Shown: piece after piece, positions 3,242-37,147 of the stretch | Layout of the letters: every line of letters starts with the position of its first letter | How positions within the stretch are numbered: position 1 is the stretch's first letter | IMG/VR virus record: IMGVR_UViG_2541047692_000013 | Strand: one strand, 5' to 3' | Length of the DNA: 42,307 bases | DNA from: a virus | Lineage: Duplodnaviria; Heunggongvirae; Uroviricota; Caudoviricetes | Translations under genes and position numbers: made by a program | The notes under the pieces: model-generated | What the model saw: the letters and a program-made list of their open reading frames with translations, nothing else | Databases searched by the model: none | What the model was told of the DNA's origin: nothing

Positions 3242-5182
3242 ATGTCTTATTTAAAATACAGAACAGATATTGATGGGCTGCGAGCTATTGCGGTTTTGCT
3301 GGTCGTGCTGTACCACGCAAACTTTCCTATTCATGGTGGTTTTATTGGTGTAGATGTTTTTTTCGTCATATCAGGATATCTCATTACCAACATCATATAT
3401 AAAGAGACTAAAAGAAATATTTTTTCATTCCTTAATTTTTACAAACGTCGAATAAAGCGATTGCTCCCAGCTTTTGCTTTTCTTCTTTTATTTTTATTTG
3501 TTTACTGCAAATTATATTTGATGCCAGATGAACTTATATCATTCTCTAAAAGTGCGGTATACGCTCTTCTTGGCATAAGCAATTTCTATTTTTTTAGTAG
3601 CACAGGTTACTTTAACTCAACCTCTTATGAACCGCTTTTACACACATGGTCGCTTTCCGTTGAAGAGCAGTTCTACATTGTATGGCCTTTCATCGTTTTC
3701 ATGCTCGCTCGGAACTCAGGGACAAAAAAAGCAATAATAATATCCTCATTACTATTTATTGTATTCCTTGGTATTTCACAGTATGGAGCGGTTAATTATA
3801 AAACAGCAGCGTATCTCCTACTGCCTTTTAGGTTCTTTGAGTTGCTCTCAGGTGCCCTACTTGCTATCTATAAAGATTCAATAACAAAACATCTGCGCCA
3901 CGGTTCTGTAATTTCACTGGTCGGCGTAATGCTGATTGTGTTGAGTTCATTATTTATAAATTCTAACACGCCATTTCCTGGGTTCACTGTTTTGCCTACA
4001 TGTTTAGGCGCTGTAATGCTTATTGCTGCAGGTGACTCATCCAAAAACTTCATTTCTAAAGTGCTGTCTTTAACTCCAGTTGTTTATGTAGGAAGAATTT
4101 CCTACTCTCTTTATTTATGGCACTGGCCTGTACTGATTCTTGCTGAATACAGGGGTATCGATCTTACGGCCTTAAATGCGACGGCGCTCATACTTATCGC
4201 ATTCATCATGGCAAGCATAAGCTATCACTTCGTTGAAAAGCCATTTAGGAAGGATTCGCTGCAATATTTCAGGACTGCATTTATAACCATCTACTTGATA
4301 CCATTAATAGTATCCGCTGCCTATGCAGCGTACATTTTAAAAAATGATGGTTTTCGCGCCAAAAGTTCAGAGTTAGTATCTGAATTAGAAGAGAGAAACG
4401 CGACAAATATTATGCGCCCACAGTGTATTGATAAATTATTTATCGGTAATGTAAATGACTGTCATCTTGGCGTTAATAAAGGCGAAGTAGATGGCGTGCT
4501 TCTTGGTGACTCCTTTGGTAATGCATATGCTTACTTTATTGATGAACTTGCGAAAGATGCTGGAATATCAATAACAGATACTACATATAGCTCAACACCT
4601 GTAATATCAGGAATTTATGTGCAGGATATCAGAAATAAGATATCTGACATAGATGCTAACCTGATAATGACATATACAAAAAACAGGCTGGAGTATGCAG
4701 CAAAACAAAAGTTCGCGATAATTTCCGTTTTTTGGGATCAGTACGGGCCACAAAATAATTACTTCCGTATCTTCGATAAAAACGGTGACGTATCGGAGAA
4801 TGCTTACCAGTTGCAATCTGAAGCAATAAAATATCTGCTGTCCAATGGCGTGAAAGTTTACATCATTGCAAGACCTTACCAGTCTATTGGCCCTGCTGCG
4901 ATAAACAAACTGCGCCAAATTAAGCTACGGCATGGGGATGTAACAACTGAAAAATATGAATACGGCGTAAAGAAAGATGATCGGATAGAATACAAGTTAA
5001 AGCAGGAGTTCCCTCAGATAACGCTAATCGATCCTAACGATGTACTTTGCCACAAAGGGGAATGTGATGCCATCGTGGATGGGAAGATCATTTTCAGAAC
5101 TGATGGTTCACACCTGAATGCTGTTGGAGCAAAAAAAATCGGGGAAGAGTATTTGAAAAACTACGCAAACCCATTTCGATAA
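3242..5182 (+). CDS. O-antigen acetyltransferase-like (acyltransferase-3 membrane domain plus SGNH-type C-terminal domain); serotype-conversion moron
   Basis: N-terminal multi-TM acyltransferase-3 signature (DGLRAIAVLLVVLYH..., FFVISGYLIT); long periplasmic C-terminal domain as in OafA-type enzymes; visibly AT-rich; converges on tailspike. Confidence 0.75.
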   Translation: MSYLKYRTDIDGLRAIAVLLVVLYHANFPIHGGFIGVDVFFVISGYLITNIIYKETKRNIFSFLNFYKRRIKRLLPAFAFLLLFLFVYCKLYLMPDELISFSKSAVYALLGISNFYFFSSTGYFNSTSYEPLLHTWSLSVEEQFYIVWPFIVFMLARNSGTKKAIIISSLLFIVFLGISQYGAVNYKTAAYLLLPFRFFELLSGALLAIYKDSITKHLRHGSVISLVGVMLIVLSSLFINSNTPFPGFTVLPTCLGAVMLIAAGDSSKNFISKVLSLTPVVYVGRISYSLYLWHWPVLILAEYRGIDLTALNATALILIAFIMASISYHFVEKPFRKDSLQYFRTAFITIYLIPLIVSAAYAAYILKNDGFRAKSSELVSELEERNATNIMRPQCIDKLFIGNVNDCHLGVNKGEVDGVLLGDSFGNAYAYFIDELAKDAGISITDTTYSSTPVISGIYVQDIRNKISDIDANLIMTYTKNRLEYAAKQKFAIISVFWDQYGPQNNYFRIFDKNGDVSENAYQLQSEAIKYLLSNGVKVYIIARPYQSIGPAAINKLRQIKLRHGDVTTEKYEYGVKKDDRIEYKLKQEFPQITLIDPNDVLCHKGECDAIVDGKIIFRTDGSHLNAVGAKKIGEEYLKNYANPFR

Positions 5183-5185
5183 GGA

Positions 5186-5203
5186 GTGCGCCTCGCGGCG
5201 CAC
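5186..5203. terminator. GC-rich hairpin between convergent acetyltransferase and tailspike genes (no U-run)
   Basis: 7-bp stem gtgcgcc/ggcgcac with loop tcgc, in the 30-nt gap between the two stop codons. Confidence 0.35.
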
Positions 5204-5212
5204 ATGCCTAAA

Positions 5213-7444
5213 TTAAGACTTCTTAAGGTACGACCATGTAACAGTGGTCGTACCGCTGCTGGTAATAGATATATCCCTTTCTGATACGCTTGCTGTGAGG
5301 AACGCCGCAGTCTTCAGCGGCTGGATCATTGCTGTCGTACCATCATAAATTACCAGGAATGAAATCGCGTAGTTTGCACCTCCGCCAGAAACCCACACGT
5401 TAACATCATAAACTCCCTCAGAGTTTGGCAAAGTAAAGAGCACGGACGCTACGTTAGCGTTGACCGATTTAGTACCCTTGTCGGTATAGACCGTGGGCAC
5501 CTGAAGCCCATTGGCATTTTTATTTTCTACATACCCACCAGCAATAACGCCTGACGTGATGCAGTTCGTGTAGTTAACGTTGCCGGTGCTCACAGTAGAG
5601 ATGGTTGGAGTTCCTCCGGCCGGAGCCTGGAACCGGCAGTTATCTGCATCAACCTGCGAGGTTACATCTGTGTGGATGAATGATGGATAGCCGGCCATTC
5701 CTTCAAAAGCGATCGGCGTACCATCGAAGCTATCTTTGCAGTTCAGCATCTTCACGCGAGATCCATTTATCGCGCGGTAAAAATCAACGATACCATTAGA
5801 ACCACCGAAAGATGTTTTCAACTTGTTGCCAGAACCAACTGCCCCGACTATCGAAACGGTTGAATTATCGAATGTCATAAACGCCACCTCAAGTGCTGAG
5901 TTGTTGTTTATAACGTTCGCCTCACCATCAAAACCGGAGATAAGAAATCCGTGACAATTCGAAAGGTAAATAGCAGACTGACCGATAGACGCGTTGGAGT
6001 TTACTGTCATCTTATCTGCTGCGCAGTTCGTCATCTGCCCTGAAAGGAGGTTTGTTAAATACCACGCGCATACGCCACCCATTACATAGCAGGACTCATA
6101 ATGGATCGTCGTGCCGGTGTTTTTGTAGAAACCACCGCGACTGCGACGCACCCATACATGCTCAAGCCTAGACATATAATTTCCAGAGTCGTCATATACT
6201 CCCCACCATGCCCCATCTATATCGACGTTTTTAATCCTTATCAAACCCGGCGATGTCTCACCACCATTTATAAGAATGCCAATTTTACCGTCGTTTGTGG
6301 CAGCATCTGTTGGATAGTCAATTCCATTCTGATCATAGAAAATATATAAATTCTCAATATTTCCTGAAGCAAAAGACTCTCCATAATGTAAGCACGCTTT
6401 ATTTCCAATTACGGAAATAAAAGTCCCTGATCTATTTATTATGTTATTACACTCACCGTATACAGTTGCAGATGTATTCATCTTAATAGTGTCATTAACA
6501 AAATATGCATTTCCACCTGGAATAAACACATTTCGTCCAGTGTTAATAGCTGCCTGTATTCCTGCGTAGTCAAAAGACTGGGTAAGCGATGTCACAAATG
6601 GATATACCATTTGTGCTGCTGTCAATGTTGAAAACACTTCGCTTAACTGATGAAGTTTTCCATCGCCTGTAGCACCAAAATCTTTTGCACTAATAAAATC
6701 GCTGTTTTTATCATGCTGTGTACGAATAAATGAACTAATGAAAGGTTGCTTCACCGAGATCAGAGCATCGCCTTTCCCGTCCTCGCCGCTGGCCAACTGG
6801 TTGAATACGTCAGCCGCCGTTCCTGAAGGCACAGGGAACGGAACGGGCTTACCGTTGGCGATGCCGATTATGCTTCCTTCAAGTTGAGCGAGAGGTGGCA
6901 GCGGATCGATATAAGAATCAGGAACACGGATTGTATGGTCGATATTCGATAAAACCGTACTGTCCACATAATTCTTTGTGGATGCATCCTGCGGGTTTAC
7001 CGGGTCTTTCAGGTTTCGAATATAGTTGTTCAGCGCGTTATAATAATTTGCCACGAATGACGGCTTGCGCAGCGCCAAGCTAAACCAACTTCGAACCTGC
7101 TGGATCAGCATCGTTAGCTTATCAAAAGCATCCTCATGCACTTCTGCAAAGAACTTCCCCTGATTACGCAAATCAGTTTCCTGCGTAACCGGGAGCTCTC
7201 GTGATATAGAAATCTGGTAACCGTTAGCTAACGCCTTCGACAGAATTACATTACCGCCGTTATATCCACCAGCCCCAGTGACAGTGTAATCAGTATCCAG
7301 AGCCAGCACAGCGATATTTTCGTCAAGGTCAACCACCTGCACTACCAGATCAGATTCCTTGAAAACCCTAAAGGTATAAGGGAATGAAGTCGTAACGCCA
7401 TTGCCTGTGTATTCGTTGTGGTCAACTTCGGTTGAGACCGTCAT
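5213..7444 (-). CDS. tailspike / tail fibre protein with T7-type N-terminal adaptor domain and beta-helix-like receptor-binding domain
   Basis: N-terminus (YTGNGVTTSFPYTFRVF...DLVVQVVD...LDTDYTV) matches the conserved podovirus tail-fibre N-terminal domain; 743 aa; Gly/Asn/Thr-rich repeats. Confidence 0.75.
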   Translation of the reverse strand: MTVSTEVDHNEYTGNGVTTSFPYTFRVFKESDLVVQVVDLDENIAVLALDTDYTVTGAGGYNGGNVILSKALANGYQISISRELPVTQETDLRNQGKFFAEVHEDAFDKLTMLIQQVRSWFSLALRKPSFVANYYNALNNYIRNLKDPVNPQDASTKNYVDSTVLSNIDHTIRVPDSYIDPLPPLAQLEGSIIGIANGKPVPFPVPSGTAADVFNQLASGEDGKGDALISVKQPFISSFIRTQHDKNSDFISAKDFGATGDGKLHQLSEVFSTLTAAQMVYPFVTSLTQSFDYAGIQAAINTGRNVFIPGGNAYFVNDTIKMNTSATVYGECNNIINRSGTFISVIGNKACLHYGESFASGNIENLYIFYDQNGIDYPTDAATNDGKIGILINGGETSPGLIRIKNVDIDGAWWGVYDDSGNYMSRLEHVWVRRSRGGFYKNTGTTIHYESCYVMGGVCAWYLTNLLSGQMTNCAADKMTVNSNASIGQSAIYLSNCHGFLISGFDGEANVINNNSALEVAFMTFDNSTVSIVGAVGSGNKLKTSFGGSNGIVDFYRAINGSRVKMLNCKDSFDGTPIAFEGMAGYPSFIHTDVTSQVDADNCRFQAPAGGTPTISTVSTGNVNYTNCITSGVIAGGYVENKNANGLQVPTVYTDKGTKSVNANVASVLFTLPNSEGVYDVNVWVSGGGANYAISFLVIYDGTTAMIQPLKTAAFLTASVSERDISITSSGTTTVTWSYLKKS

Positions 7445-7564: not shown

Positions 7565-7600
7565 TCGCAAAACGTGCTGGATAGCAAACAAATTATTTGC

Positions 7601-7620
7601 TACTGTATAAACATACAGTT
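7601..7620. promoter_or_regulatory. LexA (SOS) box TACTGTATAAACATACAGTT
   Basis: CTGT-N8-ACAG with AT-rich spacer; 17/20 match to E. coli consensus TACTGTATATATATACAGTA; overlaps a TATAAA -10-like hexamer; 20 bp upstream of ATG 7640. Confidence 0.65.
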
Positions 7621-7639
7621 ATTGCATGGAGAAGATAAG

Positions 7640-7897
7640 ATGCAGCAGTATCACTATCCACTGGAAGAGGGATTTACCGAAAGGATTCACACGCCGGGAG
7701 GCGTCAGGTCACTGGTGGAAGGATCGCACTTGATGAAATTACTCCGGGATCTCGATAAGGATGGATTTAATGTCGATGGCCCACTTGCCGAACTGACTGC
7801 ACTGATTAACTACGTCACCAGCTCACAGATGTCTATGCAGGATCTGCAAACACATCTCGACTATTGTGCCGAACAACTACGAAAACAAACCACATAA
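7640..7897 (+). CDS. small protein homologous to the antirepressor C-terminal domain (stand-alone domain); candidate SOS-inducible antirepressor
   Basis: ATG 7640 with SD ggagaag; about 40% identity, gap-free, to the C-terminus of the Ant protein at 9045..9755 (IH.P.GV..L.E.S.LM.LL..L..DG..V.G..AELT...QTH). ORF track start 7517 would put the LexA box inside the CDS. Confidence 0.5.
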   Translation: MQQYHYPLEEGFTERIHTPGGVRSLVEGSHLMKLLRDLDKDGFNVDGPLAELTALINYVTSSQMSMQDLQTHLDYCAEQLRKQTT

Positions 7898-7903
7898 AGA
7901 AAA

Positions 7904-7919
7904 GGCCGCAAGAGCGGCC
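7904..7919. terminator. bidirectional terminator hairpin between convergent genes
   Basis: Stem ggccgc/gcggcc with loop aaga; T-rich on the minus-strand side, A-rich on the plus side. Confidence 0.5.
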
Positions 7920-8647
7920 TATCGTTTCGCTTTGTGCTCGTCCCAGCACGTTTTGCACCATGCCATTAAGCCATCCGCATTTTGATTATTAGGGTAAAAG
8001 CTGGTTCGTTTTCTGCGGACATTACAAATTGGGCACCACTTCATATGACGTGTATTCTTTGGGCCATCTAGACACCTTGCACACCACTTAGTCAATCCAT
8101 CTGGATTTTTTGACGATTTCCTGAATTTTTCATATGGAAGGTTTATTCTGCATCGCAAACACTGCTTGCGGGCACTTGAAACTTCGTTAGCTGATTCTTC
8201 TTTTGACGGCGATACAGAAGGTATTCTTGCTGGCTCTGATACTGCCTGAGGTGCTTTTTTAGGTGACTGAGACGATACGTCATCACCAGGGAATCTTCCA
8301 TGATATGCCGGACACGTTGACACTCCAGGTGGAAGCTCTGCTGTAAATGGCTTTGGCTGAATCAGTTGCCTCTCTTTTGCTAACTCCTGCTGTTTATAAT
8401 ATGTCTGGATTACCGCGCTATCATAAGCAGGAGGTACGGAAATATTAGGCGCATTATCTCCCGTTTTTTGAAACTGAGTGGAGGTGTGTTCTATCACCTG
8501 TGTACGATTAATCGTTATCTCCCCATCTTCAGTCTTTATCGTTTTGTTACGATTAACGACCGTACGATCAGAGATCTTAGTCTTGTTCTGGTGAAGGACA
8601 TAAATAATCACCGCAACCACACCAACAACTATCCAGAAAACTTCCAT
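7919..8647 (-). CDS. membrane-anchored protein with two C-terminal CxxC...CxxC zinc-ribbon-like repeats; function unknown
   Basis: N-terminal TM helix (VFWIVVGVVAVIIYVL); repeats CLRCRINLPYEKF...WCARC and CPICNVRRKRTSF...WCKTC; perfect operator 20 bp upstream of start. Confidence 0.5.
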   Translation of the reverse strand: MEVFWIVVGVVAVIIYVLHQNKTKISDRTVVNRNKTIKTEDGEITINRTQVIEHTSTQFQKTGDNAPNISVPPAYDSAVIQTYYKQQELAKERQLIQPKPFTAELPPGVSTCPAYHGRFPGDDVSSQSPKKAPQAVSEPARIPSVSPSKEESANEVSSARKQCLRCRINLPYEKFRKSSKNPDGLTKWCARCLDGPKNTRHMKWCPICNVRRKRTSFYPNNQNADGLMAWCKTCWDEHKAKR

Positions 8648-8666
8648 TGCTTTTCCTCACAATAAC

Positions 8667-8683
8667 ATTACCTTAAAGGTAAT
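8667..8683. promoter_or_regulatory. operator palindrome aTTACCttaaaGGTAAt (perfect)
   Basis: Perfect TTACC-N5-GGTAA; immediately upstream of the 7919..8647 start codon on the minus strand. Confidence 0.55.
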
Positions 8684-8731
8684 ATCTTGCTTTCAGGTGA
8701 TCAAGCGTTAAACGCCACCAACCAAATACGG

Positions 8732-8776
8732 TTGATTTTTATATTTCTCCGCGTTTATCATTACCTTTGCGGTAAA
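8732..8776 (+). promoter_or_regulatory. sigma70-like promoter (TTGATT, 18 bp, TATCAT) with perfect operator TTACCtttgcGGTAA overlapping -10/+1
   Basis: -35 at 8732-8737, -10 at 8756-8761, operator core 8761-8775. Confidence 0.5.
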
Positions 8777-8888
8777 TTTACATCGCACTCCTCTTGTGCC
8801 ATAGTAATCGGGCACTGGCAAAATCCAGTGCCGGGATTGGCGTCCCGGGTTACTAAGTGGCGCATACCACGCCAGACGTGGTTTTTTT
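8768..8888 (+). ncRNA. candidate small non-coding RNA, possibly antisense regulator of the downstream antirepressor mRNA
   Basis: Promoter at 8732-8761 and intrinsic terminator (ccacg-ccaga-cgtgg plus 7 T, 8867-8888); only an ATG-less ORF spans it; internal hairpins; two segments (8837-8843, 8853-8860) are collinearly complementary to the ant leader (8954-8961, 8968-8974). Confidence 0.3.
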
Positions 8889-9044
8889 ATGCGTTAAGCA
8901 CAGCTATATCCGAATTATGGTGGGCTGGGCAGGGGTCCGAAAGGACGCCGGTACCACTTAGGCCGGTACGCCAACCTTGTCCAGTTCACCACCAGTAATT
9001 GGCGTTGCGGTGGTGATTAAAATCACTAAGTGGAGATAACCACC

Positions 9045-9755
9045 ATGGCTAATGCTCAAACTTCCATCTTCAAATTTGAATCTGTTAACCCTATCCGTTC
9101 CATCATTATCGATGGCCAACCATGGTTTGTAGCCCAAGACGTTTGTAGTGCGCTGCGTATCCAAAACGTCACCCAAGCACTTGAAAAACTGGATGATGAT
9201 GAAAGGTCTATGTTCAACATAGGGCATGAACATCGTGCAATTTTTGACAGCCGAGTAAAAGAGATCAACATCATCTCCGAGTCAGGCCTCTACACACTGA
9301 TCCTCAGATGCCGCGACGCAGTGACACCAGGCACTATCCCCTACCGCTTTCGTAAATGGGTTACAGGTGAGGTTCTTCCTCAGATCCGCCGCACCGGAAG
9401 TTACATTAAAAACTCGCTCCCGCAGGAAGAACGCATAAAGATGGTTGCCGACCAGGTAGCCAACGCCACGGCGTCAGCAGTAATGCAGGCGATGAAGATA
9501 GAGAACAAAACCTACAGTGCCCCACTGAAGCCCGGCTACCGCAGTCTGATTCACTCGCCGTCTGGTGTTCTCGGCCTGACGGAGAACTCACTGCTGATGA
9601 ATCTGCTGAACCAGTTGCAGGACGACGGGCATGATGTATCGGGCGCGGCAGCGGAGCTGACCACCATGTTCTGCTACATCGTCGGTGTGAGCAAGTGCCT
9701 GCGTGATATCCAGACCCACGCGGAGTATATCAACGACAAAGCAGGGTTCTTCTGA
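9045..9755 (+). CDS. antirepressor (Bro-N / Ant family)
   Basis: Start taken as ATG 9045 with SD ggag; N-terminal Bro-N-like motif (IDGQPWFVAQDVCSALRI...LYTLILRCR...FRKWVTGEVLPQIRRTGSY). Confidence 0.75.
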   Translation: MANAQTSIFKFESVNPIRSIIIDGQPWFVAQDVCSALRIQNVTQALEKLDDDERSMFNIGHEHRAIFDSRVKEINIISESGLYTLILRCRDAVTPGTIPYRFRKWVTGEVLPQIRRTGSYIKNSLPQEERIKMVADQVANATASAVMQAMKIENKTYSAPLKPGYRSLIHSPSGVLGLTENSLLMNLLNQLQDDGHDVSGAAAELTTMFCYIVGVSKCLRDIQTHAEYINDKAGFF

Positions 9756-9763
9756 CGAGCGGC

Positions 9764-9783
9764 GGCACACGGATGTGCCTTTA
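9764..9783 (+). terminator. putative intrinsic terminator after ant
   Basis: Stem ggcaca/tgtgcc with loop cgga followed by TTT and an A/T-rich tract. Confidence 0.4.
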
Positions 9784-9826
9784 AATAATTCTGTACAGAT
9801 TGCAGACTGGGGGTGAATAGCGTACT

Positions 9827-9843
9827 ATTACCTCAAGGGTAAG
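9827..9843. promoter_or_regulatory. operator palindrome aTTACCtcaagGGTAAg (perfect)
   Basis: 60 bp upstream of the 9902 ATG. Confidence 0.55.
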
Positions 9844-9901
9844 AAAGCATTTTTAATCTTCCCTTCAAAACGCGTCCTGTAGCCAAACATGGGAGGACGA
9901 A

Positions 9902-10534
9902 ATGAGAACAAATACAACAAGAAAAGCGATGCCATACATTATCCCAGAAGCAGATTTCGATAGAAAACTGAACATGTCTGAGAAGAACACTAGTCACACC
10001 GAAAGCTACTTAGCGAAAGGTGTGGTTGATTTCGTTCTTCCGGGATTCACAACACCTTATGGTTATCGCCTTGTAAAATCTTGTAATGGCGATCATTACA
10101 GAATGATTACTACCAGCGATACTCCAGAAACGGTGTATGCGGTTAAGTTAATCTTTCGGGAAGATATCGTCGAAGCCAAAAGAACATGTACGCAGATCAT
10201 GGTATGGCGTACGCCTAATGTTATTCATGACCGTGCTGTTCATGGTTTGCCTCAGATTTTTTTTCAGTTCTTCCTAGAGCAATATGCGATCGTTGTATCT
10301 GATGAGCAACAAACAATCGATGGGAGAAGATTCTGGGAAAGAATGATTTCTTGGGCTATAAACACCCCAGGATATAATGTATACGTTTCAGATGGCTCTG
10401 AAGAAGATAGACCTCTTAGCTTCATGACATCATGGGATGATTTCTATAGCCAGTGGGCTGATTTCTGTTGGGGCAGTGATAAAGATGTGCATACCCACAG
10501 ACTACTGGTTATAAGCAAAGATAAACTGCATTAA
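9902..10534 (+). CDS. hypothetical protein (moron, no recognisable domain)
   Basis: ATG 9902 with SD gggagga; 210 aa soluble protein; AT-rich relative to virion genes; own operator upstream and terminator downstream. Confidence 0.55.
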   Translation: MRTNTTRKAMPYIIPEADFDRKLNMSEKNTSHTESYLAKGVVDFVLPGFTTPYGYRLVKSCNGDHYRMITTSDTPETVYAVKLIFREDIVEAKRTCTQIMVWRTPNVIHDRAVHGLPQIFFQFFLEQYAIVVSDEQQTIDGRRFWERMISWAINTPGYNVYVSDGSEEDRPLSFMTSWDDFYSQWADFCWGSDKDVHTHRLLVISKDKLH

Positions 10535-10537
10535 TAG

Positions 10538-10561
10538 AAGCCCGCAGCGCGGGCTTTTTTG
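10538..10561 (+). terminator. intrinsic terminator
   Basis: Stem gcccgc/gcgggc with loop agc followed by TTTTTT. Confidence 0.65.
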
Positions 10562-10631
10562 TGGATGAAACAAAAGTCAGTGCTACACTCATTGACGCCA
10601 CATTGAGGTGGCTTATAGATGGAAATTTCAA

Positions 10632-10793
10632 ATGAAAAAAGCATTTGCTGCACTGTTCGTTTTGTTGTCTCTGGTAGCTTCAACTCAGGCCTTTGCCGGT
10701 CGTTGTCAGCACGACAGCGATACTGCCGCTGACGGCTCCCGCTGCGGTGGGCGTTCTGCGGATTCTCGCCCGGGCGGCGGTGGCATTCGTTAA
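10632..10793 (+). CDS. small secreted peptide (signal peptide plus about 31-aa mature, 2 Cys)
   Basis: Start taken as ATG 10632 (MKKAFAALFVLLSLVASTQAFA then GRCQHDSDTAADGSRCGG...); typical Sec signal with AxA site; RBS weak, so existence uncertain. Confidence 0.4.
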   Translation: MKKAFAALFVLLSLVASTQAFAGRCQHDSDTAADGSRCGGRSADSRPGGGGIR

Positions 10794-10816
10794 AAAACAA
10801 GGCCGCGAAAGCGGCC
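10790..10816 (-). terminator. intrinsic terminator at the end of the virion operon (minus strand)
   Basis: Stem ggccgc/gcggcc with loop gaaa (10801-10816) followed on the minus strand by TTGTTTTTT. Confidence 0.6.
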
Positions 10817-10830
10817 TGTGACATGTCACA
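10817..10830. repeat. perfect palindrome TGTGACATGTCACA (copy 1 of 3)
   Basis: Core GTGACATGTCAC at 10818-10829; identical 12-mers at 28049-28060 and 30314-30325, each beside an intrinsic terminator. Confidence 0.8.
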
Positions 10831-10836
10831 CTCACG

Positions 10837-10977
10837 TTATGACAAGCCTATGTATCCTGCTACACCAGATAATATCAAAATAACTGCAACAGCAAATTCG
10901 CCATCGTCAATGATACATTTACGGTTCATAACGCCAAGTGCAACAAGCGCAAACACAACAAGAATAAAAGCAATCAT
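10837..10977 (-). CDS. small hydrophobic membrane protein (46 aa), not in the ORF track
   Basis: ATG (complement of 10975-10977) with SD aagga 6 nt upstream, overlapping the stop of the preceding virion gene; translation MIAFILVVFALVALGVMNRKCIIDDGEFAVAVILILSGVAGYIGLS; stop TAA at 10837-10839. Confidence 0.45.
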   Translation of the reverse strand: MIAFILVVFALVALGVMNRKCIIDDGEFAVAVILILSGVAGYIGLS

Positions 10978-10986
10978 TTCTCATCC

Positions 10987-13461
10987 TTATTGCGGAGTGA
11001 CATCCTGTGGTCGCCACCAGTATGTCTGGTTAAACTCTTTCTTCGAACGTTGCTCCATTTTACGCAAATAGCCTGGTGAAAAATACTCCTGCATCTGGTT
11101 AAAGATCATGTGATCGAGAGCCGCCTTCAAGTACCAGAGATTCGCACCTGGCATCAGCCCCTTCCCCAGCTTAACCAGATCACCACCAGTCTGCTCATTC
11201 TTCCCTTCCACAGCATTTAACGGTATGCCCTGAGCAATCTTCACTACGTCATCAACCAGACCAGCTACCGGGCCAAGCATCGACGCCAGCGCGCCGCTTC
11301 CGTACCTAGTGTGATCTGACAATAAAAAGTCACCGTAAAGGCCAAGACCACCACCTTTCAGTAGAGCACCAAGCCAAAATTTAGCAGCATCTTCTCCTGT
11401 CATCTCGCGATGATTACGACCAGACGCAAGGTCGTTAAGTTGCTGAGACAAAGCGCCAAGAATGGTCGTGCTGGCAATAAACGTCGCAATATATGCCGCA
11501 CGCCCACCAGCAGACGGCATACCCATAGCGCGTGACCAGTGACGCATAACCACCGAGATAGGGAACGATTTAAACAGGAAAACACTTCTCGTTAATTCAC
11601 CTTTCCATGTTCCACGCTGAATACCAGAACCGGTTATCAGTTGCTCACGTGCTCCCGGTGTAATAACAGCCATATCAACTTCTTCAGTTACGGCACCGAG
11701 CAGTTTACGCATTGCCTCAAATTTCACGCGTTCAGGCTCACCAAGATGTTTAACTGCTGAATCAGGGATACGCATAATGCTTTCCGGTGTCAGCATCGTA
11801 TTATTACCGTTCCCCCAGTCCTCCTGTTGCGCCAGCTTCCATACGCTCCAGTCTGTGTCAGTAATCCCTTTGCTTTTCAGGATACGAAAATCAGAGTCAT
11901 CGAGGCTACGAAGGTCTGGTGTCCGTGACACTACTTCTCCCAGGCTTCCCATCATGGTTACGCCATAGGCGCGCTTGTGCGCATCTGACCATGCTGTAAG
12001 CCCACTGGCACGCATTACCGCCGTTGCAGCCCAACGAGACACTGACGGCCCCATATTATCCATCGCCCAGCGGTTAACGCTGCCAAGTAGAGATTCCATC
12101 GCCAGACCAGCGCGGCGCGCCCGCGCAAGCTCAGTACGGTTCGTTGGGTCCATAGCTTCAAGCTGGTTGCGGAATAACTGGTTCATTGGAAGGTTGGTCA
12201 CCTTCGCAGACAGATACATGGTTCCAAGATCAGAGAACGATGACAGCAACGCGGATCCGAGTCTGCTGGCAACCAGCCAGTTGCGGATATTGTCAGACCA
12301 TCGCGCGATGTGCGGATTTGCTACAGGCTGTGTCTTTCCGGAAATAAAGTTGTACAGATTCTCTGTGTTGTTCGCCAGCCGCTCGACTTTACCGGTTTTA
12401 CTCGGGTTAGCTGTTGCCGTTTCTGCCTTCACCTGATCAAGAAGAGAGCGGAAAACATGATCGGGGTTTGGGCCATATGTTTCCACCAGTGCAATATCTT
12501 TACTGATACCTTCCAGGTGACCGACCATGATTTCCCATAGAGAGCGATCGCCATAAAGTTGCTGATATTGCAGATAGGAATCTGCATCTTTGAAATGTAT
12601 CTGTCGTGATGCATTACCACGGTTAGCACGTGCGCCGGAAATTCGCATTCCGGTATCAGTAAGCTTATTCAGCCCACCAGTAGCGATCGTGTTATAAGCC
12701 TCTCCAAGAAATGCAGACAACTCGGCATCGTTCATCAGTTGTCCATCGGCTCGGATATAATATTTGCGATCCAGCTTACCTATAACATCGCTAACCCACT
12801 TATCCTTTGATACCGCCCCAACCTTTTCCATAGAATGATGTTGAGGGATCCCCCAGTTTTCGAGATAGCCAATGTCCCCACCAGCATCATTAAACCGGCG
12901 GCGCAGCAGCTCTGTAACTTCTCTCCACGCCTTAGCACCTTTTCTTGCTTTAGCATTGCCAGTATTTTGCCCCCGCATTTCATATACCAGGTCACGTACG
13001 CCCGCTTCATCTTCAAACAGACCAAAAAAGCGAGGATCAACTGCTTCGAATGCCTCCTGCAATTGACTCAATGCATAATCACGGGTGGCTTTTGTTCTGG
13101 ATTCAACAGAGAGGAAATTAGATTTACCGTCTGCATTAAAAGCTATAGTACGGTTAAGAGCGCCAAGTTTCCCATCAGCCCCTTGATAGCTATTGATAAA
13201 TTTATCCAATCTCTGACGTGCAGCTATAGTGAGAGCCACACGACGTTTCTTTAATGCCGCTTCTCGCTGTAATTCTTCAGATGCCAATTGTGCTGCACGA
13301 TACAGCCGCTCTGACTCGGAAAGTTGTCGCCACGACATAGGGTCATCACGAGCAATGGAGCGCATATTGCGATAAATGCGGTCTTCAATGTTCTGTATTT
13401 CTCGCGCCGTTAACGTGCGCTGCGCCGCCTGCTGGACCGCTTGTATACATTCCTGTCTCAT
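10987..13461 (-). CDS. large internal virion / DNA-ejection protein
   Basis: 824 aa; last large gene of the virion operon, the position of podovirus internal core/ejection proteins; called by position and size only. Confidence 0.5.
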   Translation of the reverse strand: MRQECIQAVQQAAQRTLTAREIQNIEDRIYRNMRSIARDDPMSWRQLSESERLYRAAQLASEELQREAALKKRRVALTIAARQRLDKFINSYQGADGKLGALNRTIAFNADGKSNFLSVESRTKATRDYALSQLQEAFEAVDPRFFGLFEDEAGVRDLVYEMRGQNTGNAKARKGAKAWREVTELLRRRFNDAGGDIGYLENWGIPQHHSMEKVGAVSKDKWVSDVIGKLDRKYYIRADGQLMNDAELSAFLGEAYNTIATGGLNKLTDTGMRISGARANRGNASRQIHFKDADSYLQYQQLYGDRSLWEIMVGHLEGISKDIALVETYGPNPDHVFRSLLDQVKAETATANPSKTGKVERLANNTENLYNFISGKTQPVANPHIARWSDNIRNWLVASRLGSALLSSFSDLGTMYLSAKVTNLPMNQLFRNQLEAMDPTNRTELARARRAGLAMESLLGSVNRWAMDNMGPSVSRWAATAVMRASGLTAWSDAHKRAYGVTMMGSLGEVVSRTPDLRSLDDSDFRILKSKGITDTDWSVWKLAQQEDWGNGNNTMLTPESIMRIPDSAVKHLGEPERVKFEAMRKLLGAVTEEVDMAVITPGAREQLITGSGIQRGTWKGELTRSVFLFKSFPISVVMRHWSRAMGMPSAGGRAAYIATFIASTTILGALSQQLNDLASGRNHREMTGEDAAKFWLGALLKGGGLGLYGDFLLSDHTRYGSGALASMLGPVAGLVDDVVKIAQGIPLNAVEGKNEQTGGDLVKLGKGLMPGANLWYLKAALDHMIFNQMQEYFSPGYLRKMEQRSKKEFNQTYWWRPQDVTPQ

Positions 13462-27392: not shown

Positions 27393-27469
27393 GTGGCATT
27401 AGCTCAGTTGGACAGAGCAACCGCCTTCTAAGCGGTCGGTCGCAGGTTCGAATCCTGCATGCCACGCCA
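27393..27469 (+). tRNA. tRNA-Arg (anticodon UCU)
   Basis: 77-nt cloverleaf by hand: acceptor GTGGCAT/ATGCCAC, D-arm GCTC/GAGC, anticodon stem ACCGC/GCGGT with loop CTTCTAA, T-arm GCAGG-TTCGAAT-CCTGC, discriminator G, encoded CCA. Confidence 0.85.
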
Positions 27470-27555: not shown

Positions 27556-27632
27556 CAGCAGGACGCCATTGCGATGGCTTCATGCTGTAAACCAGTACAG
27601 CCACGGAAGGCATAACTCATTGCTTCCAGTTC

Positions 27633-33795: not shown

Positions 33796-34140
33796 TCAGA
33801 ACTCTTCGATATTCCAGCCACCACCTGCTTTCTTTGGTTTAACCGTTACCCCGATGATTCGGAACGGATACTGATCTGCGGCGACTTTGGTTTTCACCCT
33901 GGCGTCGTCGGTCCAGAAACCTTTCACTTCGTGCAGTTCCATCTCTCCGGTGGCGAGCATCACAGCGAAATCTGGCGTATAGAACGTGTTATCAGCTAAC
34001 CGCAGCTTGATACCCTCGAATCGATACCAGGCGATTTCCCCTGCACGTTTACGCAGCTCAAGGTGCTGGCAATACGCAGATTCTGTTTTGTTCATCTGGC
34101 CTGTTTTGAGTCGACCAAGAGCCTGTATCTGTTTTCTCAT
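33796..34140 (-). CDS. DUF1064-like phage protein (putative nuclease-fold)
   Basis: 114 aa; motif ESAYCQHLELRKRAGEI...YRFE...YTPDF...EVKG typical of DUF1064; operator overlaps its SD. Confidence 0.5.
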   Translation of the reverse strand: MRKQIQALGRLKTGQMNKTESAYCQHLELRKRAGEIAWYRFEGIKLRLADNTFYTPDFAVMLATGEMELHEVKGFWTDDARVKTKVAADQYPFRIIGVTVKPKKAGGGWNIEEF

Positions 34141-36562: not shown

Positions 36563-37147
36563 ATGAAAAGTATCCAGGACGTCCGCAGGCAAAATCTCAA
36601 CGACTTGATCGACCGTGAATTCAATGGTGTTCAGACGCGGATGGCAGAAAAACTTGGAACTCAGGCAAATCTGGTAAACCGCTGGGCTCTTGGCAAGAAG
36701 GTTATCGGCGACCAGGTTGCGCGAAAAATTGAAGCTGCCGCCAATAAACCACGTAACTGGCTTGATATCGATCGCTCGCTTTCTCAGGAAGGTTTTCAGC
36801 CTGTCGGCCCAAGCGACATTGGTCAGCTGGCGGCTCACAACCTGGAACGCTGGATGAGCGAAAGCCGCGACCTTTCAACTCAGGGAAAACTTCACCGCGC
36901 ATCCGGCGTCGCCCAGGTGACAATCAGCCGCCTGTTAAACAATGAGGTCAGTGTTTCCATTTCCACCCTGGAGAATGTTGCATCAGCATTCGGGCGTCAC
37001 GGCTATGAATTACTGATTCACCCGCACGACCCTGCGACCATCAACTATGACCGCTCGCGCTACGCATTGTTACCCGAAACCGAGAAAGCAAAGATCGAAA
37101 GTTACATTGAATTTGTCATCAACCAGAACGAAAAAAACAAACAATAA
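36563..37147 (+). CDS. CI-like repressor with two tandem HTH (XRE-type) domains and no peptidase/autocleavage domain
   Basis: 194 aa; HTH-like segments at about residues 20-45 (VQTRMAEKLGTQANLVNRW) and 110-140 (ASGVAQVTISRLLNNEVSVSISTLENVASAF); no Ala-Gly/Ser-Lys LexA-type cleavage module seen. Confidence 0.55.
   Translation: MKSIQDVRRQNLNDLIDREFNGVQTRMAEKLGTQANLVNRWALGKKVIGDQVARKIEAAANKPRNWLDIDRSLSQEGFQPVGPSDIGQLAAHNLERWMSESRDLSTQGKLHRASGVAQVTISRLLNNEVSVSISTLENVASAFGRHGYELLIHPHDPATINYDRSRYALLPETEKAKIESYIEFVINQNEKNKQ

Follow-up and report, generated by a model that had tools for sequence, protein, structure and literature searches.

Gene content and prophage setting

The DNA analysed here, referred to as the window, is a 42,307-nt stretch of a Caudoviricetes virus (IMG/VR record IMGVR_UViG_2541047692_000013) that represents a complete prophage of the epsilon15/phiV10/TL-2011b/SPC32H type, i.e. 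a Uetakevirus-like podovirus that is integrated between yfgI and guaA in E. coli. Between positions 9827 and 10793 it carries two small open reading frames, namely ORF-A, encoding a 210-amino-acid (aa) protein that is predicted to be soluble and cytoplasmic, and ORF-B, encoding the 53-aa precursor of a putative secreted peptide (Table 1). According to the gene map, which follows that of a near-identical prophage annotated by RefSeq in strain SCU-116, the lysis genes are followed from left to right by the genes for an O-antigen acyltransferase and the tailspike, an accessory block (approximately 7600-10830), a leftward virion operon and the early and immunity region. The two genes form the right end of the accessory block and thereby abut the end of the ejection-protein operon. 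Matches to this region were found by megablast in the E. coli phages TL-2011b, phiv142-3 and phiV10 as well as in hundreds of E. coli chromosomes.

A sequence-only reading of the same DNA had regarded both genes as parts of one self-contained moron. The present analysis instead favours two unrelated accessory genes of an epsilon15/phiV10/SPC32H-type prophage, i.e. a repressor-gated, GNAT-like cargo gene (ORF-A) next to a separate backbone gene (ORF-B), and we assign a probability of roughly 0.6 to this explanation as a whole. The kind of feature is ordinary, namely a cargo in a variable prophage slot followed by a conserved gene for a small exported protein. The 210-aa gene itself was confirmed and has a strong Shine-Dalgarno (SD) sequence. 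Its AT-rich character was confirmed, too, as its GC content is 40.8%, compared with 48.8% in the entire window and 50.7% in the virion block.

Table 1. Coordinates of the features discussed in the text. Positions refer to the window, or to residues of the ORF-A protein where indicated; the dot marks features without strand assignment.
Feature	Position	Strand	Remarks
Terminator-like hairpin GGCACA-CGGA-TGTGCC, then TTTAAATAATT	9764..9779	+	just after the Bro-N stop codon; bases paired in the predicted fold; kept in 7/7 aligned slot variants; conserved backbone
Perfect 10-bp palindrome TCTGTACAGA	9790-9799		immediately upstream of the -35-like hexamer of the slot; kept in most slot variants
Promoter-like element of the slot (predicted)	9800..9828	+	read from sequence; -35 TTGCAG 9800-9805, 17-nt spacer, -10 TACTAT 9823-9828
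Operator-type palindrome TTACC-TCAAG-GGTAA	9828..9842	.	contains the final base of the -10 hexamer and overlaps the predicted transcription start; borders the swappable segment on the left; before the cargo slot
Variable cargo segment (5' untranslated region and ORF-A)	9843..10538	+	replaced by other genes in related prophages
Predicted SD-sequestering hairpin	9873..9899	+	CGUCC 9873-9877 pairs with GGACG 9895-9899, covering the SD sequence GGGAGGA 9891-9897
ORF-A	9902..10534	+	210 aa, 24.6 kDa, pI 6.0; no transmembrane segment or signal peptide predicted; PHROG 1349
Intrinsic terminator T1 (GC-rich hairpin and U-tract)	10536..10563	+	hairpin 10536-10558; first element of the conserved right flank; behind every cargo type
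Candidate ORF-B promoter elements	10581..10619	+	read from sequence; extended -10 TGcTACACT 10581-10589, or TTGACG 10592-10597, 16 nt, TATAGA 10614-10619
ORF-B	10632..10793	+	53-aa precursor; predicted signal peptide 10632-10697 (22 aa, cleavage between AFA and G); mature 31-aa peptide 10698-10790
GC hairpin common to convergent transcripts	10800..10817	.	U-tract on the minus strand only; after ORF-B on the plus strand without U-tract
Palindromes	8668, 8761		before the 242-aa gene and the Bro-N gene
Palindrome	27056		near tRNA-Arg and the start of the late operon
Palindrome	30221		near the start of terS
Palindromes	34144, 34206		before a 114-aa ORF, 33796-34140 (-)
Palindrome	36493		OR-like; intergenic region of the 194-aa HTH gene and the cro-like gene diverging from it; accompanied by two imperfect copies
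Palindromes	37205, 37268		just after the HTH gene terminator, before the rightward early genes (OL-like)
Predicted GNAT beta4	ORF-A residues 95-103
Predicted GNAT alpha3	ORF-A residues 116-127
Predicted GNAT beta5	ORF-A residues 129-133
Predicted GNAT alpha4	ORF-A residues 139-154

A conserved slot with exchangeable cargo

A conserved slot between the Bro-N gene and the ejection-protein operon accommodates alternative cargoes of at least eight kinds, and ORF-A is one of them. In a blastn comparison with TL-2011b, the stretches 9269-9842 and 10539-10829 are conserved at 96-99% with no match between them, which delimits the swappable segment to 9843-10538; TL-2011b harbors a YafO-family toxin pair at this place. 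For a census of cargoes, 80 IMG/VR contigs with a 100% identical ORF-B were examined, and both junctions of the slot were located in 56 of them. The cargoes of these 56 loci form eight clusters: a YafO-type pair (16 loci), ORF-A (10), DUF4760 (8), a 195-aa protein (7), a 274-aa membrane protein (5), a Bro-N duplicate together with DUF2335 (4), a pair of 72 and 128 aa (4) and a pair of 62 and 110 aa (2). Yet another cargo is present in the same synteny in a Klebsiella prophage of this type. When ten alternative cargo proteins were searched, no PADLOC match was obtained, and Pfam recognized only DUF4760 and DUF2335.

As judged from an alignment of the junctions, the conserved backbone consists of the hairpin behind the Bro-N gene, the promoter-like element, the palindrome at 9828-9842, the terminator T1, the region upstream of ORF-B and ORF-B itself. 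The TAnnAT hexamer that abuts the palindrome is kept in all seven aligned cargo variants, and the palindrome has conserved arms but a variable spacer. The promoter-like element, which matches the consensus at only 7 of 12 positions, was not called by a consensus scan. On the other side, the T1 hairpin has a folding free energy of -15.3 kcal/mol, and none of 200 shuffled sequences folds as well. The slot thus comprises a -10-like hexamer fused to a 15-bp operator-type palindrome, followed by the swappable segment and an intrinsic terminator. The perfect palindrome TCTGTACAGA was also considered as a LexA box and rejected, as its arms lack a spacer; no LexA box is present at the slot, the nearest LexA-type boxes in the window being located at 7603-7618 and 27585-27600.

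These data modify the moron interpretation in several respects. ORF-A indeed is an accessory cargo of odd composition that is present or absent among close relatives and framed by a promoter/operator and a terminator, yet this frame belongs to the slot that is common to at least eight cargoes, and ORF-B belongs to the backbone. Likewise, the proposed strong terminator downstream of ORF-A is real, including its U-tract, but serves all cargoes of the slot. The palindrome behind the operator that had been ascribed to ORF-A exists, too, and its occurrence is far from chance, but it is not private to this gene, as it is part of the slot and one of ten copies in the window (see below). Its position at 9828-9842 also explains why the region had been taken to begin at 9827.

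Other positions around the slot are variable as well. A 242-aa protein with an N-terminal transmembrane helix and C-terminal repeated W-C-x-x-C motifs (zinc-ribbon-like) is encoded at 7919-8647 (-), where the Klebsiella prophage has a DUF6236 protein; the palindrome copy at 8668 precedes the gene in the window. To the right of ORF-B, the hairpin at 10800-10817 is primarily the terminator of the convergent virion operon, which ends with the gene of a 46-aa membrane protein. This protein (phrog_7892, 10837-10977 (-)) has two hydrophobic segments; its gene closes the ejection-protein operon, and relatives carry proteins of 98, 118 or 134 aa at its position. In Klebsiella, a prophage of this type (locus L012) has a gene of the Rap1a family, coding for a type VI secretion immunity protein (5711-6094), two genes away from its ORF-B homologue; hence, the neighbourhood collects genes of inter-bacterial conflict, too.

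Separate distributions of ORF-A and ORF-B

The arrangement of a gene for a cytoplasmic protein in front of a gene for a secreted peptide had led to the suggestion of a signalling pair or a periplasmic effector. In the window, the two genes are adjacent on the same strand, merely 97 nt apart, and they co-occur in about 92 E. coli genomes, as one would expect for a single functional module. However, a strong terminator stands between them, and the identical ORF-B protein (WP_000708858.1) is found behind at least seven other cargoes, such as those of the YafO and DUF4760 types and several unnamed cargoes of one or two genes in E. coli, while a close variant (WP_072754464.1) follows the DUF2335 cargo. 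In Pectobacterium, ORF-B even occurs alone between two virion genes of a different prophage. Conversely, the ORF-B motif was not detected within 5 kb of ORF-A relatives in any of 73 loci from other genera, phage types and chromosomal sites. Part of the 967-nt region is matched in 436 E. coli genomes, mostly only its backbone and ORF-B part, and ORF-A is present in 94 of 5426 complete E. coli genomes. Furthermore, ORF-A has no receptor-type features such as tetratricopeptide repeats or a helix-turn-helix (HTH) motif, and the promoter region of ORF-B is devoid of the operator that precedes ORF-A. Cargo swapping, the separate distributions and the absence of shared loci thus do not support the idea of a pair, which is largely refuted by the distribution and which we regard as highly improbable. 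A peptide signalling system of the arbitrium type was likewise rejected, since the genes are not co-distributed and the predicted ORF-A fold resembles an enzyme rather than a receptor.

ORF-B has to be viewed on its own, as a separate backbone gene with its own candidate promoter. The region upstream of it is nearly 100% conserved among the slot variants, and no copy of the palindrome is present between 10559 and 10631. Hence, ORF-B may be expressed independently of immunity.

ORF-B, a constrained gene for a putative secreted peptide

The ORF-B precursor consists of MKKAFAALFVLLSLVASTQAFA, followed after the predicted cleavage site by GRCQHDSDTAADGSRCGGRSADSRPGGGGIR, so that the mature part starts with GRCQ. 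As previously recognized from the sequence, its N-terminus has all hallmarks of a Sec signal peptide in front of a mature peptide of 31 residues with two cysteines. The segments MKK, AFAALFVLLSLVAS and TQAFA provide an n-region with two lysines, a hydrophobic core of 13-15 residues (Kyte-Doolittle maximum of 2.27 over 15 residues) and an A-x-A cleavage motif directly before the glycine. Within the family, A22 and G23 on both sides of this site are at least 90% conserved, and the h-region varies. The cysteines occupy positions 3 and 16 of the mature peptide and are 12 residues apart. A lipoprotein was rejected, as no lipobox ([LVI][ASTVI][GAS]C) is present; Cys25 is preceded by F-A-G-R in the window and by A-G-N in most relatives.

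Homologues of ORF-B, which are named "transmembrane anchored protein" at NCBI and phrog_14503 in PHROGs, occur in E. coli, Shigella, Klebsiella, Citrobacter, Cronobacter, Franconibacter, Salmonella, Pectobacterium and Dickeya. One may argue that a frame of 53 codons with a weak SD sequence (GGAA) and no known function is not a gene at all, and that 10559-10830 comprises regulatory or terminator DNA only. This is exceedingly unlikely in view of its conservation: ORF-B is encoded on 307 IMG/VR contigs and represented by 57 protein clusters from at least nine genera, in which the signal peptide varies freely while the mature part is near-invariant (C-Q-H-D-x-D-T-A-A-D-G-S-R-C-G-G-R-S-A-D-S-R-P-G-G). 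Compared with Pectobacterium, 12 of the 25 codons of this part differ, and all 12 changes are synonymous, none non-synonymous. In addition, no Rfam match was found in the region. The mature peptide is under strong purifying selection, and on the grounds of this codon pattern ORF-B is a real gene, in agreement with its earlier recognition as a genuine secreted-peptide gene.

ORF-B is probably exported by the Sec system, cleaved by signal peptidase I after AFA and released as a 31-aa periplasmic peptide, which probably contains a single Asp-rich loop that is closed by a disulfide. The AlphaFold model shows a helix for residues 2-22 (signal peptide) and one bridge inside the Cys loop, but the mature part is otherwise a coil of low confidence, which counts against this reading. 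Kinship of the mature peptide to Excalibur-type or DxDxDG calcium-binding motifs was considered and dropped, since no Pfam match was obtained at E <= 1 and the spacing differs. In the literature, no mention was found of the two WP accessions or of a prophage "transmembrane anchored protein". Speculatively, the peptide may have a role in the envelope, for example, by interfering with incoming phage or by metal binding of its Asp/His-rich loop.

A putative dispersed operator and the Rep/Ant-type switch

The palindrome at the slot, TTACC-N5-GGTAA, is present in ten exact copies in the window, where 0.09 are expected; in 100 shuffled sequences, it never occurred more than once. In every copy, one T belongs both to the palindrome and, as the last base, to a -10-like hexamer (TACTAT, TATCAT, AATTAT, TTTAAT or GATAAT), and in one case a perfect TTGACA is located at a distance of 17 nt. 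The sites are also present in related E. coli and Klebsiella prophages. Besides the slot, they are found at the presumed OR-like and OL-like regions as well as in front of several accessory and late genes (Table 1). One copy (27056) is located approximately 320 nt upstream of a tRNA-Arg gene (anticodon TCT, 27393-27469 (+)) that lies between the head and terminase genes.

The proteins that may act on these sites can be deduced from homology. The 194-aa HTH protein encoded at 36563-37147 (+) is a homologue of the "Repressor" chain of PDB entry 5d50 (5d50_A, E 4e-42), and the other chain of this entry, the "Anti-repressor protein", has a homologue in an 85-aa protein encoded at 7640-7897 (+) (E 5e-48). 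The entry is reported to show Rep in complex with Ant from SPC32H, an epsilon15-like phage of Salmonella (Kim et al., PNAS 2016). As stated in a citing paper (PMC9638917), SPC32H Rep binds palindromic sites as a tetramer, which is broken by Ant. A LexA-type box, CTGTATAAACATACAG, is located at 7603-7618, 22 nt upstream of the gene for the 85-aa homologue, and a second one (27585-27600) precedes a Gp49-family gene. The 3' part of the Bro-N gene (9522-9778), in turn, has an inverted counterpart of 94% identity in TL-2011b, namely the 3' part of its "anti-repressor Ant" gene (locus L001, 3709-3965), which indicates domain shuffling among antirepressor-like genes.

From the positions of these sites, we infer that the palindrome is an operator of Rep and/or Cro, that the ten copies represent what looks like the genome-wide operator set of the Rep repressor and that the promoter of the cargo slot would hence be under immunity control. 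As the slot promoter has the palindrome in common with the OR-like and OL-like repressor regions, ORF-A looks repressor-gated and may be expressed at induction or infection, not in the stable lysogen. If so, an SPC32H-type repressor would control many more promoters than those of the immunity region.

The -10-plus-palindrome unit also precedes ORF-A homologues in phage LLS and at two Symbiopectobacterium-type loci, so that ORF-A seems to be exchanged together with this junction. In LLS, the palindrome upstream of the homologue is the only copy in 42.9 kb and thus cannot be that phage's own immunity operator. This observation speaks against a purely lytic-phase role of ORF-A. Two properties of the slot speak against its control by the repressor: it has a single operator copy in comparison to two to three in the OR-like and OL-like regions, and its -35 element is poor and differs among the variants.

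The ORF-A family and its probable relation to GNAT proteins

ORF-A had been described as a protein with no recognizable domain, and direct sequence searches indeed give none. No match was obtained in Pfam, NCBIfam or PADLOC (PADLOC-DB v2, E <= 1, where ORF-B gave none either), and family profiles searched against PDB sequences retrieved nothing meaningful. The only full-length match is to phrog_1349, an unannotated PHROGs family. Nevertheless, the family is large: 63 clusters with 37-100% identity, nearly all of about 210 aa, are spread across Enterobacterales, and a profile search of 1.84 billion representatives retrieved 920 clusters with a threshold of E <= 1e-3, or 274 if E <= 1e-10 is required. 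Conserved motifs of the family are TQ(I/V)xVWR, G-x-A and SDxxQTxxGxxFW.

Structure prediction and profile comparison go beyond this result. The AlphaFold2 model of ORF-A, which was based on 40 sequences, has a pLDDT of 79.6 and a pTM of 0.75. When it was compared with the PDB by Foldseek, most of the top 50 matches were GNATs, in addition to related superfamily folds, with the aminoglycoside acetyltransferase AAC(2')-Ia as the best match (E 0.011, probability 0.97) and the toxins AtaT, KacT and TacT among the weak ones. Among viral models (BFVD), the best matches are uncharacterized phage proteins, such as one from Agrobacterium phage Atu_ph07, followed by "NAT_SF" proteins at E 4e-4; structural or sequence matches were found in the large phages Atu_ph07 and BCSR5.

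A bridge to recognized GNATs is provided by a 203-aa protein that is encoded two genes away from a family member on contig L085 and gives borderline matches both to the hidden Markov model (HMM) of the ORF-A family and to Pfam Acetyltransf_1. Its family, referred to as sister family A4, is named "GNAT family N-acetyltransferase" at NCBI, and 21 of 28 members match Acetyltransf_1. Using hhalign, the ORF-A family was aligned with A4 at a probability of 77% and an E value of 2e-5 over 88 columns (ORF-A residues 113-207). Via this mapping, ORF-A is compatible with the GNAT fold order beta1-alpha1-alpha2-beta2-4-alpha3-beta5-alpha4-beta6, although the scores are weak and the similarity is one at fold level only. 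At the beta4-alpha3 junction, where motif A (Q/R-x-x-G-x-G/A) is expected, R-x-x-G-L-A of A4 is aligned with A112-V-H-G115-L-P117 of ORF-A, and the family consensus keeps G-x-A. The predicted fold and the profile-profile bridge thus place the ORF-A family as a very divergent branch of the GNAT superfamily of acyl-CoA N-acyltransferases, an assignment that we consider likely. As a separate observation, members of the sister GNAT family, 198-210 aa in length, are encoded very frequently on E. coli P1-like phage-plasmids of 90-100 kb (L220-L222, 5001-5597), where the gene is found at the end of an operon beside a variable spot (DUF3892, an insertion sequence element or Lom) and the repL-kilA-ant region.

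A number of points speak against this placement, and the link to GNATs is weak at every single step. When 133 diverse family members were searched against Pfam (E <= 0.01 and E <= 1), no family was enriched, and none of the 133 matched any Pfam GNAT model. The hhalign match to A4 covers only the C-terminal half of ORF-A, and no profile link was found by hhalign to E. coli RimI. The Mom family of phage Mu, a GNAT-fold phage moron, was rejected as a relative at an hhalign probability of 0.2%; ORF-A gave no match to Pfam Mom (PF25680), to which Mu Mom itself matches at 2e-75. Furthermore, the Q/R of motif A is lost, an insertion of approximately 10 residues follows beta4 before alpha3, and the near-invariant Trp145 occupies the position at which many GNATs have the catalytic Tyr that usually serves as general acid.

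Because of such deviations, ORF-A could be a non-catalytic scaffold of GNAT ancestry that acts by binding, for instance by inhibiting a defence or an enzyme of the host. The mostly aromatic or hydrophobic nature of the near-invariant residues in the wider family would agree with this view. GNATs bind the pyrophosphate through main-chain amides, though, so that the loss of Q/R is not decisive, and D134, Q137, T138, G141 and the G-x-A of motif A are conserved over 133 diverse members. A catalytically dead protein appears unlikely to us.

Predicted occlusion of the SD sequence

Within the swappable segment, the 5' untranslated region (UTR) of ORF-A may add a second layer of control. In the predicted hairpin (Table 1), the SD sequence is paired, and an alternative anti-SD sequence, UCUUCCC, is located at 9857-9863. 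In 27 distinct 5' UTRs of the family (L004-L027, L104-L126), an anti-SD sequence CUCC or GUCC is kept 8-14 nt upstream of the SD sequence GGAGGAC in two pairing registers. The predicted pairing probability of the SD sequence has a median of 0.79 in these 27 regions in comparison to 0.50 in 255 other genes from the same loci (Mann-Whitney p = 3e-7, uncorrected for phylogeny, which lessens its weight). RNAalifold did not retrieve a single consensus structure from the family alignment because the anti-SD sequence pairs in two registers, and an Rfam search of 9700-11000 gave chance-level matches only. Probably, the conserved hairpin restrains translation of ORF-A further. It is not strong evidence for such a restraint, since the fold energy of the window's own 5' UTR is not unusual (z = -0.7).

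Genomic settings and possible roles of ORF-A

Relatives of ORF-A occur without ORF-B in several settings. These include a Serratia siphovirus-type prophage, Citrobacter P1-like phage-plasmids and the lambdoid phage LLS, in which the gene is located directly behind Rz/Rz1, together with many chromosomal sites. The phage homologues stand at classical accessory positions, with a strong terminator directly after the stop codon. Distant members are found on phage-like contigs among many small uncharacterized co-directional genes, and one such contig (L139, 2864-4109) carries two members as tandem paralogues. Two further associations are of interest with respect to function. On a metagenome contig (L086, 3823-5080), a distant member of 359 aa combines an SRA/ScoMcrA-type modified-DNA-binding domain with an ORF-A-like domain, and its gene has the position of a toxin gene, as it overlaps with a bona fide Phd/YefM antitoxin gene at the 3' end of the latter; additional Phd-like genes are present on the contig. 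On contig L085 (1519-3580), an MqsA-type Zn-ribbon is fused to an ORF-A-like domain, with the recognizable sister-family GNAT two genes downstream. The phage-accessory positions and the SRA/Phd and MqsA-type associations are hints at a conflict-related role for ORF-A.

Based on the position of the operator, ORF-A is probably silent or only weakly expressed in the lysogen and becomes active upon induction or when a new cell is infected. It would then probably transfer an acyl group to a target of the host or of a competitor in the course of phage-host conflict, be it for host takeover, counter-defence or a toxin-like action. In a more far-reaching version, PHROG 1349 and its more than 900 relatives would represent an unrecognized class of GNAT-derived conflict effectors that act on nucleic acid or aminoacyl-tRNA, are switched by phages via a repressor operator and an anti-SD hairpin, and have been recruited elsewhere as a Phd/YefM toxin and in fusion with SRA. 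This generalization is tentative, and we regard it as improbable in its full extent. If true, the slot would be a repressor-gated, hot-swappable locus for early weapons and not a locus of lysogenic conversion.

The same associations can also be read in terms of a toxic effector that is expressed in the lysogen and restrains itself, i.e. a single-gene factor of abortive infection or exclusion with GNAT ancestry, following the logic of AtaT/TacT/KacT or of fused toxin-antitoxin defence proteins. The YafO-type toxin pair that fills the slot in TL-2011b and many other prophages is in line with such a role, as are the position of a distant member behind a true Phd/YefM antitoxin gene and its fusion to a reader of modified DNA, the fusion of another member to an MqsA-type Zn-ribbon, the location of relatives in single-gene chromosomal islets, the presence of AtaT, KacT and TacT among the weak fold matches, and the predicted SD sequestration, which suggests tight translational restraint. 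What is missing is the antitoxin: there is no ORF in 9756-9901, T1 follows directly after the stop codon of ORF-A, and no antitoxin gene adjoins the homologues, which are single genes, in more than 70 loci of relatives, the pairing with Phd being a single example. Moreover, no PADLOC match was obtained, and with an operator at its promoter the gene is presumably repressed in the lysogen, where a resident defence gene would have to be expressed. A self-restrained resident toxin hence seems rather doubtful.

A different picture emerges from chromosomal relatives. A homologue of about 50% identity is retained at one fixed locus in approximately 17 species of Enterobacter, Leclercia, Lelliottia, Silvania and Huaxiibacter (L047-L063, L069, L072; approximately 5001-5600), where it is located between an MmyB-like regulator, which stands beside a major facilitator superfamily (MFS) transporter and mscM/ybdG, and nfsB, with no phage genes around. 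Other relatives occupy fixed sites in Photorhabdus (between the chb operon and hda), Proteus (between thiD and pagP) and Xenorhabdus (between ppc and metF), and a genus-specific chromosomal site is also found in Morganella. Such stable single-gene copies suggest that cells can profit from ORF-A or at least tolerate it, and they fit a cell-beneficial function better than a purely lytic-phase role, which counts against the repressor-gated conflict gene preferred here.

One such function would be that of a detoxifying or resistance acyltransferase for an antibiotic, a microcin or a xenobiotic that is carried by phages as a fitness factor. GNAT-mediated resistance to small molecules is well established, the best Foldseek matches of ORF-A are to AAC(2')-Ia, and the vertical retention at the Enterobacter-group locus beside the MFS transporter, the MmyB-like regulator, nfsB and a TetR regulator would make sense in this context. 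However, the fold matches are too weak to indicate a substrate, no resistance-family HMM was matched, and neither the operator-bearing promoter nor the homologues on phage contigs, with their small uncharacterized neighbours and tandem paralogues, fit well. We regard a resistance enzyme as improbable, more so than a toxin or a scaffold. A survey of the literature on Uetakevirus morons and on GNAT proteins in anti-phage defence revealed nothing relevant.

Implications

Taken together, the reading of two neighbouring small genes as one system is corrected here. A common family of E. coli and Klebsiella prophages has a conserved promoter/operator-to-terminator frame in which at least eight cargoes replace one another, and the slot offers a ready place to look for new genes of phage-host conflict. 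A large unnamed family without Pfam model receives a first, albeit tentative, structural and evolutionary placement, and attention is drawn to a small putative secreted peptide that is very strongly constrained and carried by hundreds of prophages. Four leads arise for future studies: the hot-swap slot between operator and terminator, the large family of apparently divergent GNATs with toxin-like associations, the dispersed operator of presumed Rep type, and the constrained peptide.

Comparison with known systems

In terms of the moron concept of Hendrix and Juhala, ORF-A shares several traits with morons, since it is present or absent among prophages that are otherwise 96-99% identical, has an atypical GC content (40.8% in comparison to 48.8% for the window) and is followed by an intrinsic terminator. 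It differs in that the promoter/operator and the terminator belong to the slot and not to the gene, yet homologues elsewhere possess a terminator behind the stop codon, three of them together with an upstream palindrome. Moreover, the slot promoter appears to carry an immunity-type operator, so that expression in the lysogen, a classical property of morons, is doubtful. The immI/sieA region of P22, located between the ejection-protein genes and the tailspike gene, is a positional analogue of the slot, which here lies between antirepressor genes and the ejection-protein operon.

With the GNAT superfamily, including the toxins AtaT, TacT and KacT as well as AAC(2')-Ia, ORF-A has the predicted fold in common, together with the alignment of its C-terminal half to a family recognized by Acetyltransf_1 and the G-x-A of motif A. 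It is set apart by the absence of a direct match in Pfam or NCBIfam, the lost Q/R, the beta4-alpha3 insertion and the Trp in place of Tyr. From the GNAT toxins it additionally differs in its size (210 aa in comparison to approximately 160-175) and by the absence of an adjacent ribbon-helix-helix/DUF1778 antitoxin gene.

ORF-B may be compared with T4 Sp and the lipoproteins Cor, Llp and Bor, which are small Sec-exported envelope factors of prophages. Like these, it is small, predicted to be exported and an independent unit near virion and entry genes, but it has no lipobox, no transmembrane anchor after cleavage and no sequence similarity to them.

Finally, the putative regulation of the slot resembles the Rep/Ant/LexA switch of SPC32H, as both chains of 5d50 have close homologues in the window, which also has a LexA-type box in front of the Ant homologue and carries palindromes in the rep/cro intergenic region. 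In contrast to SPC32H, for which this is not reported in the part of the literature checked, the palindrome also occurs at promoters of accessory genes, i.e. at the cargo slot, the Bro-N gene and the tRNA/late region. Its distribution is reminiscent of the multi-site repressor systems of phiC31, with its conserved inverted repeats, and of mycobacteriophage L5, with its "stoperators", in that a short repressor-type site is present at about ten places throughout the genome and mostly overlaps promoter-like elements. The proteins involved are unrelated, and the sites of the window are symmetric and fused to a -10 hexamer.

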